NCBI GenBank assembly: GCA_016180525.1
Contig: JACPBB010000002.1
Location: 48,824 to 112,823 of the forward strand
Origin: Parcubacteria group bacterium
Lineage (GTDB): Bacteria > Patescibacteriota > Minisyncoccia > Phycocordibacterales > UBA2135
Direction of reading: 5' to 3'
DNA: 64,000 bases
Positions 1,517 to 49,584 of this stretch are shown piece by piece; the stretch's first letter is position 1; every line of letters starts with the position of its first letter. The notes under the pieces were generated by a model. It saw only the letters and a program-made list of their open reading frames with translations. It was not told the DNA's origin and did no database searches. A program made the translations under genes and the position numbers.

Positions 1517-1875
1517 TTTTTATGATGAGTTCAGTGAATAATCTTTAATATTATCGCAGAATTCCATGGGCGTAAGCCCGTGGAGAAGTTAAGCAATGCG
1601 AGCGGGGCGAAGCATTGCGACCCAAAACCCTCCATTCTAGAAATAAATCTCCGCGCCTGTAAGGGCGTAGAGATTTATAATAAGGACGTATTGATTTATC
1701 TAACGCCAACAAAAAATTTTTTCATTATTTAAAAAGAAATATATTTGGGGCGCCCCACCTACGCCAAGGCTTTGACGGGCAAGCGTCGTAGAGGATGCTT
1801 GCCCATCCGTAGCTTTAGCGAAGGAGGGTTAGAACTGTAATACACCAAACGAGTAAGAATTTTTATATTCCTCTC

Positions 1876-8112: not shown

Positions 8113-8150
8113 AAACCGCTCTGGTATACATCAGAGCGGTTTTTTCTTTT
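8113..8150. terminator. rho-independent terminator after spoVR
   Basis: AAACCGCTCTG...CAGAGCGGTTT hairpin followed by a T-run. Confidence 0.6.
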
Positions 8151-8155
8151 GGTGC

Positions 8156-8215
8156 GCAGGAGAGGAATTTCACTACTCGTCGCTCCGCCAGTTGGCGGAG
8201 CTCCTGCGCTTTCAA
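8156..8215 (-). other. tRNA-Leu-derived pseudo-tRNA remnant
   Basis: On the minus strand it reads GCGCAGG...ATTCCTCTCCTGCGCACCA. It shares the 5' acceptor strand and the last about 18 nt (T-stem plus acceptor plus CCA) with the bona fide tRNA-Leu 190 bp away. The internal region is replaced by a single hairpin. Confidence 0.45.
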
Positions 8216-8308: not shown

Positions 8309-8343
8309 AAAAAAACCGTACTGTTTGTGAGTACGGTTTTTTT
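8309..8343. terminator. hairpin + T-run immediately downstream of tRNA-Leu
   Basis: CCGTAC...GTACGG stem flanked by an A-run and a T-run. Confidence 0.45.
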
Positions 8344-8347
8344 GTTT

Positions 8348-8434
8348 TGGTGCGCAGGAGAGGATTTGAACCTCCACGACCTTGCGGCCACTAGCCCCTC
8401 AAGCTAGTGCGTCTACCAGTTTCGCCACCTGCGC
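8348..8434 (-). tRNA. tRNA-Leu (anticodon GAG), class II with long variable arm, CCA encoded
   Basis: Cloverleaf read by eye. Anticodon loop is TTGAGGG, variable arm GGCCGCAAGGTC, T-loop TTCAAAT, and the acceptor stem is GCGCAGG/CCTGCGC. Confidence 0.85.
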
Positions 8435-24018: not shown

Positions 24019-24175
24019 AATGCCTACGAGTAATTATGAAAATTACAAAAATTTATAAAAATAACTATAAAAAGCGCGAATACAACATTATATCATAAAT
24101 ACGACAGAGCCTACGAGCAATTATGAAAATGATACAAAATTGGTGTATTTATAGTATATTATACATACTATCCTT

Positions 24176-47245: not shown

Positions 47246-48262
47246 ATGTCAAGTACTCCAAAAAATAAAGATTCCGAACCAAAGTTCTTAGACAACACGC
47301 TTCGCCCGTCAAAATGGGACGAGTATATCGGGCAACGAGGAGTTAAAAATAATCTTCGCATTCTACTGGATGCTGCGGGCGGAAGAAAACAGCCACCCGA
47401 GCATCTCCTCTTCTACGGACCTCCGGGGCTCGGTAAAACAACGCTCGCGCATTTAATCGCGCAAGAAACACGTTCACAGATGAAAGTTACTTCCGGTCCC
47501 GCGATTGAAAAAATCGGAGACCTTGCCTCGCTCCTTACAAATTTATCTCCGGGAGATATTCTTTTTATAGATGAAATACACCGTTTGAGTAAAGTTATAG
47601 AAGAAGTGCTCTACCCCGCGATGGAGAACGGCTCGCTTGATATTATTATCGGCAAAGGCCCTTCGGCGCGCACGATACAACTTGAGCTTCCTCCATTTAC
47701 CCTTATCGCTGCGACGACACGCATAGCCCTTCTCTCTTCGCCTCTGCGAAGCCGTTTTTCGGGCGGAGTATTCCGACTTGAATTTTACAGCGAAGAAGAG
47801 ATCCAGCAAATATTAAAACGCTCCGCGGGGCTTCTTAAAACAAACATTAATGCTGATGCTCTTGCCGAAATCGCGCAAAGAAGCAGATACACTCCGAGAA
47901 CCGCAAATTATCTATTAAAACGATGTAGAGATTTTGGACAAGTAAATAAAAAAAGAGAGCTCACAAAAGAAATCGTAGAGGAGGCTCTTTCTCTTCTTGA
48001 AATTGACGCGCGAGGCCTTACCTCATCAGACCGAAAAATACTTGAGTCAATTATTATGAAATTTAACGGTGGACCCGTCGGAGTAAACACGCTCTCTGCT
48101 GCGACGTCAGAAGAGAGCGCCACCATTGAGGAGGTCTACGAGCCGTATCTCTTACAAATCGGCATGCTTGAGCGAACACCCCGCGGACGGATGGCGACAA
48201 AAGCCGCATATGAGCATTTGGGGCTTCCCCCGCCGCAAGACCCGCAAGAGAGGTTGTTATAA
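47246..48262 (+). CDS. ruvB: Holliday junction branch migration helicase RuvB
   Basis: LLFYGPPGLGKTTLA Walker A and an AAA+ RuvB architecture. Confidence 0.9.
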   Translation: MSSTPKNKDSEPKFLDNTLRPSKWDEYIGQRGVKNNLRILLDAAGGRKQPPEHLLFYGPPGLGKTTLAHLIAQETRSQMKVTSGPAIEKIGDLASLLTNLSPGDILFIDEIHRLSKVIEEVLYPAMENGSLDIIIGKGPSARTIQLELPPFTLIAATTRIALLSSPLRSRFSGGVFRLEFYSEEEIQQILKRSAGLLKTNINADALAEIAQRSRYTPRTANYLLKRCRDFGQVNKKRELTKEIVEEALSLLEIDARGLTSSDRKILESIIMKFNGGPVGVNTLSAATSEESATIEEVYEPYLLQIGMLERTPRGRMATKAAYEHLGLPPPQDPQERLL

Positions 48263-48472
48263 CGAGTGTAGTGAGTATATTTTCTTAACCGAGAGCACTC
48301 AACGTATTGAGTGCTTGGTGCTCAAAAAATGTGGTCGCTTCGCTCCCTATTTATTTGGCATGTCTGGTCATAACAAATGGAGTAAAATTAAACACCCTAG
48401 TATCACAGCGCGAAGCGCTGGCTACGGGGCGGGAAGTGGTAATACAGACTTATCAGAGTAAAATTACATACG

Positions 48473-49006
48473 ATGTCGGGACATAACAAATGGAGTAAAA
48501 TTAAACACAAAAAAGCGGCGGAAGATGCTAAAAAAAGCAAGGCATTTTCAAAGTTTACCCGCCTCATAACGCTTGAGGCAAAAAAAGCAGCCGGAAACAA
48601 AGACGCTCCCGGGCTGCGAACTATCATTGAGCGCGCACGAGCAATTAACATGCCTGCCGATAATATTGAGCGAGCAATTAAAAAAGGTTCTGATAAAGAA
48701 TCCGCAAATCTTGAGGAGGTAACATATGAAGCATACGGTCCGGGCGGAAGCGCGCTCATTGTAGAGGGACTCACTGATAACAAAAACAGGACTTTGGGAG
48801 AATTAAAAATATTATTCGCTGATTATGATACAACTCTTGCCGAGCGCGGAGCAGCACTCTGGGCGTTTGAAAAAACTCCCGACAAAAAGTGGCACCCAAA
48901 AACTACCATGTCTCTTTCAGATGAGAATAAGGAAAAATTAAAACAACTGATTGATATGTTGGAGGAAAACGATGATGTGCAAGCAGTATATACTAATGGC
49001 GGTTAG
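48473..49006 (+). CDS. yebC: YebC/PmpR family DNA-binding transcriptional regulator
   Basis: MSGHNKWSKIKHKKAA N-terminus is characteristic of YebC. Followed by ruvC, as in many bacteria. Confidence 0.85.
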   Translation: MSGHNKWSKIKHKKAAEDAKKSKAFSKFTRLITLEAKKAAGNKDAPGLRTIIERARAINMPADNIERAIKKGSDKESANLEEVTYEAYGPGGSALIVEGLTDNKNRTLGELKILFADYDTTLAERGAALWAFEKTPDKKWHPKTTMSLSDENKEKLKQLIDMLEENDDVQAVYTNGG

Positions 49007-49062: not shown

Positions 49063-49584
49063 ATGAATCGCGACACACGATACAAGTTACACGATATAAG
49101 AGTGCTTGCTATTGACCCAGGATTTGAGCGACTCGGTATCGCCGTCATCGAAAAAAAACAAAAAGGACGAGAGATTCTTCTCTTTTCTTCGTGTTTTAGA
49201 ACTTCCCCGAAATTGCCATTCCCAGAACGCCTAGAATCTGTGGGAAAAGAAATAGAAAAAATGATAAAAAAGTTTAAGCCGCGAGCGCTTGCGATTGAAA
49301 CACTTTTTTTTAACACGAACCAGAGAACAGCCATGCGAGTCGCAGAAGCGCGGGGCGCGATTATGTTTGTATCAAAAAAAATGGGACTTGAAATTTTTGA
49401 ATATTCACCTCTTCAGATTAAAATAGCCATTACCGGATATGGCCGCGCGACCAAAGAACAGATTACGTTGATGATTCCCCGCCTTATAGATATTAAAAAT
49501 AAAGGGGGAAAAACGGATGATGAATATGATGCCATCGCGGTAGGACTTACCCATTGCGCCTCCACGCTACCTGTGGACAAGTAA
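49063..49584 (+). CDS. ruvC: crossover junction endodeoxyribonuclease RuvC
   Basis: RVLAIDPGFERLGIAV and the catalytic acidic residues of the RuvC fold. Confidence 0.85.
   Translation: MNRDTRYKLHDIRVLAIDPGFERLGIAVIEKKQKGREILLFSSCFRTSPKLPFPERLESVGKEIEKMIKKFKPRALAIETLFFNTNQRTAMRVAEARGAIMFVSKKMGLEIFEYSPLQIKIAITGYGRATKEQITLMIPRLIDIKNKGGKTDDEYDAIAVGLTHCASTLPVDK

Follow-up and report, generated by a model that had tools for sequence, protein, structure and literature searches.

Several kinds of described genetic element resemble parts of the arrangement reported here. SXT/R391 elements insert at the 5' end of prfC and dusA-specific integrase islands insert at dusA, and in both cases the target gene is regenerated. 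At these sites, the first tens of bases of the gene are repeated around the insert, the downstream start keeps the gene intact, the insert brings expression signals, and tandem accretion is possible. REP/BIME, MITE-like, and Correia elements lie in AT-rich intergenic DNA as imperfect, GC-rich palindromes whose base is conserved and whose top varies, and some small palindromic elements, such as the Correia elements, carry promoters. Leader-peptide uORFs, which control genes through attenuation or re-initiation, consist of a short upstream ORF with an internal hairpin and a stop shortly before the real start. Finally, short repeats under concerted evolution are nearly identical within a genome, diverge between genomes, and differ at their edges. 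The yebC locus that we analyzed shares traits with each of these systems, and none of them fits it fully.

Our analysis was based on a window of 64,000 nucleotides (the whole stretch of DNA that was analyzed) from a Parcubacteria group bacterium, a metagenome-assembled genome of the Paceibacteria (Patescibacteria), in which the gene order is ruvB-yebC-ruvC, all on the forward strand. ruvB (47246-48262; 338 aa; Pfam RuvB_N, AAA_lid_4, and RuvB_C) is separated by 210 nt from yebC (48473-49006; Pfam YebC/TACO1), which encodes the short 177-aa form of the protein that is normal for Paceibacteria, and ruvC (49063-49584; Pfam RuvC) follows. The true first 36 nt of yebC (copy B, 48473-48508, ATGTCGGGACATAACAAATGGAGTAAAATTAAACAC) occur a second time upstream as a pseudo-start that spells yebC codons 1-12 (MSGHNKWSKIKH; copy A, 48360-48395, ATGTCTGGTCATAACAAATGGAGTAAAATTAAACAC). 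The two copies are identical at 34 of 36 positions, lie at an offset of 113 nt with a 77-nt spacer between them, and differ at nt 6 and nt 9, both differences being silent. The best 36-mer match in 2000 shuffles of the upstream 670 nt reached 24/36 (mean 18.4) and the pair is the longest close direct repeat of the window; a chance repeat is thereby ruled out. Copy A opens a uORF of 33 codons (48360-48461) that runs through a hairpin in the spacer, termed E2, and its stop codon, TAA (48459-48461), lies 11 nt 5' of the yebC ATG. Two statements of the original prediction, that the gene start is encoded twice with two silent differences and that a 33-aa upstream ORF stops 11 nt before yebC, are thus confirmed. 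By themselves, the two silent differences of the window are uninformative on selection, and the support for preserved coding comes from relatives.

The region between ruvB and yebC can be divided into distinct parts. A first GC-rich hairpin, E1 (48289-48318), reads CCGAGAGCACTCAA-CGTA-TTGAGTGCTTGG and is followed by TGCTC; its position and 3' flank (..GGGG/GGTG followed by TGCTC/TGAC) are homologous to inserts bounded by inverted repeats that lie about 40-45 nt 5' of yebC in the related loci L008, L073, L089, and L090. The adjoining segment (48319-48359), which now precedes copy A, aligns with the leaders of L008 and L073 (GTCGCTTCGCTCC..TA..ATG), and the whole of 48300-48359 could be aligned to the functional yebC leaders of these two loci (GGGTGA..TATAGTCGCTTCGCTCCTTA..ATG). 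Because the region 5' of copy A aligns with functional leaders, it is probably the ancestral yebC upstream region; copy A would then mark the ancestral start position, with the spacer and copy B being derived. The spacer opens with the E2 hairpin (48396-48429), which has the base CC(C/T)AGTA..GCTACGGGG and a variable apical stem, AGCGC-GAA-GCGCT. It continues with a conserved motif, CTACGGGGC(G/A)(G/A)GAAGTGGTA (48422-48441), that anchors our nhmmer profile (window E = 1.5e-7), and ends in an AT-rich tail (48442-48472) with a -10-like TAAAAT at 48459-48464, which is 17 nt from GTGGTA on its 5' side and 8 nt from the yebC ATG on its 3' side.

Searches with the spacer gave largely negative results. 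No second copy of it exists elsewhere in the window or among the flanking sequences of related loci, it has no tRNA match, and it is similar neither to yebC nt 37 onward nor to the region 5' of copy A. The window region and 11 related loci gave no match in Rfam 15 at the gathering score or at E < 0.5, and no conserved complementarity between spacer and 36-mer, as expected for an antisense or alternative-pairing switch, was found, with one case only, in L027. We also rejected an origin of the spacer from a decayed ruvB 3' end and intergenic sequence, as local alignments were no better than those of shuffled sequences in five lineages (p 0.23-0.73) and marginal in L172 only (p 0.03). A tentative likeness of the hairpin to 23S rRNA (the sarcin-ricin loop, helix 89, and the region that cross-links to YebC) is a lead that amounts to short, gapped matches.

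Nine further lineages share this architecture, with YebC only 50-75% identical among them. The order of parts is the same throughout: a pseudo-start ending at nt 36, a hairpin with the base CCCAGTAC...GCTACGGGG, the motif CAAGAAGTGGT, an AT-rich tail, and the real yebC. E2-type units were present in five of 80 metagenome loci (L086, L122, L123, L127, and L144) and in none of 80 species representatives; among the latter, two upstream pseudo-starts, arranged as tandem units, were seen in L027, and a single one, with a GC-rich insert of 517 nt, in L076. Of eight closer relatives recovered by protein search, L167 carries two units, L168 and L175 carry a single unit each, and L172 carries hairpin and tail but no copy A; L166, with 37 nt of upstream sequence only, is uninformative on the presence of the cassette. 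Two lineages (L167 and L027) thus have tandem units. The upstream copy of every E2-type unit begins with the start codon and breaks off precisely at nt 36 (...AAACAC), after which CC follows. The units measure 102-124 nt, apart from the 152 nt of L144, where a 32-nt mini-element interrupts copy A, and the inserts between the copies (66-88 nt) are homologous between genomes. A recent tandem duplication of the gene start, as originally proposed, does not account for these data, since the spacer is unrelated to the flanks and is not the contiguous type of sequence that a simple duplication leaves, and since the same junction and a homologous spacer recur in nine other lineages.

When 175 loci and the window were searched with a profile built on the 3' half of the hairpin and the tail, the only matches were these cassette loci and L172, and we therefore regard the module as yebC-specific. 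The conserved motif CTACGGGGC(G/A)(G/A)GAAGTGGTA is confined to yebC 5' ends in the same 175 loci and window; the 64-kb window has a single E2 motif, and in about 0.86 Mb of loci this motif is found at yebC only. The distribution is patchy. Most relatives are entirely without copy A, and the cassette of copy A and E2 is missing in L131, L032, and L006, the last of which retains a tail-like leader; this pattern is consistent with repeated loss (L131, L032, L006, and L172). Comparison of orthologous loci thus places the duplication in relatives as well, and the layout is a recurring piece of gene architecture, not a one-off duplication or an assembly error.

Similarity between the copies ends sharply at the start codon and at nt 36. 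The 22 nt located 5' of copy A and of copy B are no more similar to each other within a lineage than between lineages, so the repeat is bounded at these two points, and a duplication reaching 5' of the ATG is not supported by the leader comparison. Within this boundary, copies A and B are nearly identical in most genomes (34-36/36 in six, a seventh being L144 with its interrupted copy A), and the 36-mer differs between lineages at up to 11 synonymous sites. Differences between A and B fall mostly at nt 1-9, a clustering at the edge that would be expected of gene conversion with tracts that rarely reach the repeat edge. Their adenine-independent nature led us to reject a DGR-type repeat.

The differences that do exist preserve the encoded peptide. 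Across eight lineages, 26 of 27 A/B differences keep MSGHNKWSKIKH, compared with an expectation of 85% non-synonymous for random changes, and the silent differences include switches between Ser codon families (TCA/AGT, TCT/AGY) in L167, L168, and L175. This disparity suggests that copy A is under coding selection or has been repeatedly replaced from functional alleles. Two copies escaped homogenization and still kept their coding sense: copy A2 of L167 differs from B at 10 positions and copy A of L168 at eight. Copy A2 of L167 matches copy A of the window at 35/36 positions and its own copy B at only 26/36. Similarly, copy A of L168 matches L144 at 35/36, with cassettes 81% alike (3' half and tail) and YebC only 50% identical, while the window and L086 have YebC 71% identical and cassettes only 38% alike. 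This incongruence between cassette and YebC, together with the mosaic copies, is suggestive of exchange between lineages, on a comparison of about 50 aligned bases in sequences near consensus, where two cassettes could look alike for that reason alone. Several upstream copies are damaged, namely those of L123 (W7R), L144 (the 32-nt insert, after codon 8), L167 (A1), L027, and L076. The start codon of copy A, ATG or GTG, is retained in all E2-type units. In L086 and L123, copy A begins 9-11 nt after the ruvB stop, and no hairpin lies 5' of copy A in L086, L123, L168, L175, L127, or L144.

In the E2 hairpin, the base is conserved, including a bulged A and a C-C mismatch, and the apical stems are wholly different in sequence yet still complementary. 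The basal helix with its bulges is the same in L123 and L168, and related hairpins occur in L086, L122, and L167b. Four of nine hairpins are more stable than GC-matched shuffles (z -2.5 to -3.8) and five are not. Hairpins with the same base also stand 39-43 nt 5' of yebC genes that lack a duplicated start (L008, L073, L089, L090, and L172), and in the window one stands 5' of copy A as well (48289-48318). The tail carries GT(G/A)AGTAATAT, with TAATAT or TAAAAT about 8 nt before the ATG in most cassettes; the distance from GTGGT to TAATAT is about 17-18 nt in most of them and 15 in L123.

Copy B has no Shine-Dalgarno sequence. Across 167 loci, -10-like hexamers peak 6-9 nt 5' of the yebC ATG, which suggests that yebC is probably expressed from a leaderless mRNA, and a similar peak was seen for ruvC. 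Shine-Dalgarno motifs are mostly absent from the yebC loci L006-L175 and from ruvC starts, and leaderless mRNAs may be common in these Paceibacteria. The geometry of the tail, with its hexamer about 8 nt from the ATG, fits this clade-wide peak and supports a promoter within the cassette. A consensus scan called no strict sigma-70 promoter in the tail, where the -35 is poor, and no intrinsic terminator in the cassette. The yebC start itself has further features. In many loci (e.g. L144 2998-3025 and L027 2462-2475/2516-2529), the usual codons at nt 1-12 and nt 16-29 make ATGTCAGGACAT a perfect palindrome; on the minus strand, GGTCAA supplies a -35 (TTGACC), with a -10 (CATATT) that overlies the start codon; and the unit end in L027 is a perfect 14-nt antisense of yebC nt 16-29.

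The reading that we tentatively place first, at a little short of even confidence, is that of a conserved cassette, made up of hairpin and promoter and bordered by a regenerated gene start; on this view, the upstream copy has been orphaned and is read as a short uORF. The two 36-nt copies form the borders of a unit of about 100-125 nt that recurs at the yebC 5' end in scattered Paceibacteria. Since hairpins with the same base precede yebC where the start is not duplicated, and given the -10-like geometry, hairpin and tail would constitute the working upstream module of yebC; the hairpin may terminate transcription, insulate the gene, or bind a protein, and a leaderless yebC mRNA would start at copy B from a promoter in the tail. 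Copy A would be the former start, left behind the older upstream signals, and its short uORF, which would still be read, stops within the tail. Gene conversion or recombination would keep the copies alike, recombination between them could delete or multiply the unit, and units or unit parts may be exchanged between lineages. The unit could have arisen in either of two ways: by insertion of hairpin, tail, and 36 nt after nt 36, or by placement of a start copy 5' of a pre-existing hairpin-tail intergenic region. Several points count against this cassette reading. The -35 is poor, the sigma-70 scan called no promoter in the tail, and five of nine hairpins are no more stable than shuffles. A copy A that is a neutral leftover predicts mostly peptide-changing differences, of which one in 27 was seen, so that exchange of functional alleles or real selection would be needed; and we found no enzyme or mechanism for making a bounded 36-nt duplication.

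The first alternative, which we consider fairly unlikely, is that selection maintains copy A for a regulatory role, as a translated uORF, a decoy start, or a relay. Initiation on copy A would occur leaderless from the old promoter or, in L086 and L123, by re-initiation after the ruvB stop; ribosomes would melt the hairpin, which lies inside the uORF, and stop 11-37 nt before copy B, gating a real start that lacks a Shine-Dalgarno sequence. Control could operate by re-initiation, competition, or titration, and the N-terminal identity would be held because the same initiation region or peptide is needed. YebC/TACO1 has itself recently been shown to be a translation factor, acting to relieve the pausing of ribosomes at proline-rich motifs (PMC12234827), which makes translational feedback plausible. 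The uORF ends 5' of copy B in eight of nine cases, and copy A sits behind native signals or directly after ruvB. The uORF or decoy function suggested in the original prediction finds partial backing, in the preserved 12 residues, in the start codon kept by all E2-type units, and in the position of copy A behind an ancestral leader. Other observations are at odds with it. The peptide past codon 12 is unconserved, frame and stop position vary, and no conserved poly-proline stretch or other known YebC-dependent motif is encoded; folding and manual checks revealed no conserved alternative pairing; and five loci, listed above, have decayed upstream copies. L172 and the E1-type loci do without copy A, as do most relatives. 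The coding-preserving signal comes mainly from L167 and L168, and exchange with functional alleles can yield the same signal. When compared with known leader-peptide uORFs, this one differs in opening with an exact copy of the first 12 codons of the regulated gene, in the lack of conservation of its remainder, and in having neither a terminator/antiterminator alternative nor a conserved stalling motif.

A second alternative, improbable in our view, takes the unit to be a small, non-autonomous cassette, mobile or integrative, that brings along a yebC start of its own and homes to the 5' end of the gene. In that case the 36-nt copies would be att-like cores, as in dusA and prfC elements, or homology arms; a recombinase acting in trans would be needed, and tandem units would stem from repeated integration. 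Several of the findings above fit this scheme: direct repeats with sharp borders flank an insert, as att cores do, at the same positions in all lineages; tandem arrays exist in L167 and L027; and the similarity of cassettes does not track that of their hosts. Copy A of L167 and of L168 departs from the resident copy B from the first codons onward and resembles the starts of other lineages, although such resemblance may reflect a common consensus. The hairpin base also resembles a dispersed palindromic mini-element of 31-33 nt (window about 1797-1828, copy A of L144, and unit 1 of L027). However, within 2.5-3 kb at about 170 loci there was no recombinase gene, full-length parent element, second yebC-start copy, or larger insert, and motif and junction were absent from 2.9 million viral contigs, save for two chance coding matches. 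The prfC and dusA elements run to kilobases and bring an integrase gene with them, whereas the insert at yebC spans 66-88 nt with no recombinase nearby, and a unit of about 100 nt is far below the size of any known integrative element. In L172, moreover, E2 hairpin and tail form a plain intergenic region without the repeat. A combined version seems equally improbable: a self-propagating cassette or, equivalently, a selected decoy, in which a module of about 110 nt with a hairpin, a leaderless promoter, and the first 12 codons would home to, or be maintained at, the yebC start by the 36-nt identity. The spare leaderless start would be translated and its coding sense selected, resulting in feedback or relay control of YebC.

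Far less likely is a single ancient tandem duplication of hairpin, promoter, and yebC nt 1-36, followed by vertical descent, in which the non-coding parts diverged to saturation, the 36-mers were homogenized by gene conversion, and the unit was lost many times. Such a history would agree with the identical junction everywhere, with the ease of loss by repeat recombination, with the differences at the repeat edge, and with the window, where each copy is preceded by a CC...GG-based hairpin and a leader of 41-43 nt. It conflicts with the six loci that lack a hairpin 5' of copy A, two of which (L086 and L123) have copy A almost directly after ruvB, with leaders that are not detectably related, and with the incongruent cassette and host similarities, and it demands very many independent losses as well as persistent conversion of a 36-bp tract. 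An assembly artifact or a meaningless strain-private duplication can be dismissed with near certainty, because, even though short repeats are able to confuse assemblers (the one point in its favor), the copies are resolvable by two differences, the layout occurs in nine other lineages whose samples are unrelated, and five independent Logan assemblies from separate sequencing runs with identical YebC (L001-L005) are 100% identical to the window over 301 nt covering both copies.

Other known processes fit the locus in part or not at all. A dispersed repeat of the REP/MITE type would be present in many copies, and in the loci and window searched the E2 hairpin and tail are found at yebC only; furthermore, the flanking repeat is 36 nt long and not a target duplication of 2-10 nt, and no RAYT or transposase was seen here. 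Off-target integration of CRISPR spacers (neo-CRISPR) would fit the 36-nt repeat but not spacers of 66-88 nt that are homologous between genomes. Programmed translational bypass of the T4 gene 60 type does not apply, as codon 12 is not followed by a stop, copy B carries a start codon of its own and so needs no bypass, and bypass leaves the 36-nt identity unexplained. Concerted evolution of short repeats describes the behavior of the copies in part; here, unlike in its usual form, the tract is only 36 bp, one partner is a gene start that is itself essential, and L167 and L168 escaped homogenization.

The interval between ruvB and yebC contains other insertions in related loci. In L076 (1984-2500), an independent duplication of the yebC start with another junction (similarity to about nt 56) encloses the 517-nt insert, which is GC-rich and foreign-looking and has a 59-aa ORF on the opposite strand. 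In L173 (340-567) and L174 (about 800-1100), a small Cys/His-rich ORF is inserted on the opposite strand. Inserts of 120-216 nt bounded by long inverted repeats with the base CCCAGTAC...GTACGGGG were also observed, at L008 2318-2462, L089 2819-2960, L090 2809-2959, and L073 2152-2403. In L008, L089, and L090 the insert includes a promoter-like TATAAT as well as a conserved candidate for a small hairpin RNA without an Rfam match, with a covarying outer stem (GCGACACAC/GUGUGUCGC vs ACGAACCGC/GCGGUUCGU) and the inner sequence GCCUAUUC(C)GGC.

The window holds additional repeats away from yebC. At about 1755-1828 (minus strand), 3' of the gene at 1876-2742, there is a GC-rich mini-element of 31 nt, CCCTCCTTCGCTAAAGCTACGGATGGGCAAG, with an inverted, diverged copy after it; together they form a long palindrome that is REP/BIME-like. 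Members of this mini-element family lie in copy A of L144 (after nt 23) and in the hairpin loop of L027 unit 1, and one forms the L127 spacer. The last 20-30 nt or so of tRNA-Leu(gag) (8348-8434, minus strand), including the CCA, and the preceding terminator-like hairpin are duplicated 198 nt downstream (8140-8169 and 8338-8367; 30 nt, 93%). The interval between these repeats is rich in GC hairpins and resembles a truncated tRNA-like minihelix (GCGCAGG..CTCCGCCaactGGCGGAG..CCTGCGCACCA); a decayed tandem tRNA is one possible origin and an att-type scar another. Lastly, a 33-nt direct repeat (24022-24054 and 24109-24141; 85%, spacing 87 nt; GCCTACGAGyAATTATGAAAAT...) lies in an AT-rich region between divergent genes and is not a gene-start duplication; its two copies are possibly a pair of regulator sites.

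YebC is about 240 aa long in model bacteria. In this clade the protein has a short form of 175-179 aa, in which the match to the Pfam model of the second and third domains is split and partial. Cassette loci can also mislead gene callers into picking the wrong start or inventing N-terminal extensions, as illustrated by an in-frame extension from copy A in L086, an upstream extension in P0095/L169, and a spurious 129-aa ORF in L005. Neither a yebC leader nor this unit is described in the literature that our search returned, and the search gave nothing relevant on REP/MITE elements in CPR bacteria. The conserved, yebC-specific upstream module, bounded by an exact copy of the gene's own first 12 codons and with copies that co-evolve, appears to be undescribed.

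To our knowledge, nothing is known about how YebC is controlled, and we know of almost no regulatory elements described in Patescibacteria. If a relay or decoy operates at this locus, it would represent a new wiring of leaderless gene expression through a spare start; if the unit is mobile, it would be a very small unit of DNA that propagates by carrying a piece of its target. The locus is concrete and testable, and both readings would have something to tell about gene regulation and genome dynamics in Patescibacteria.
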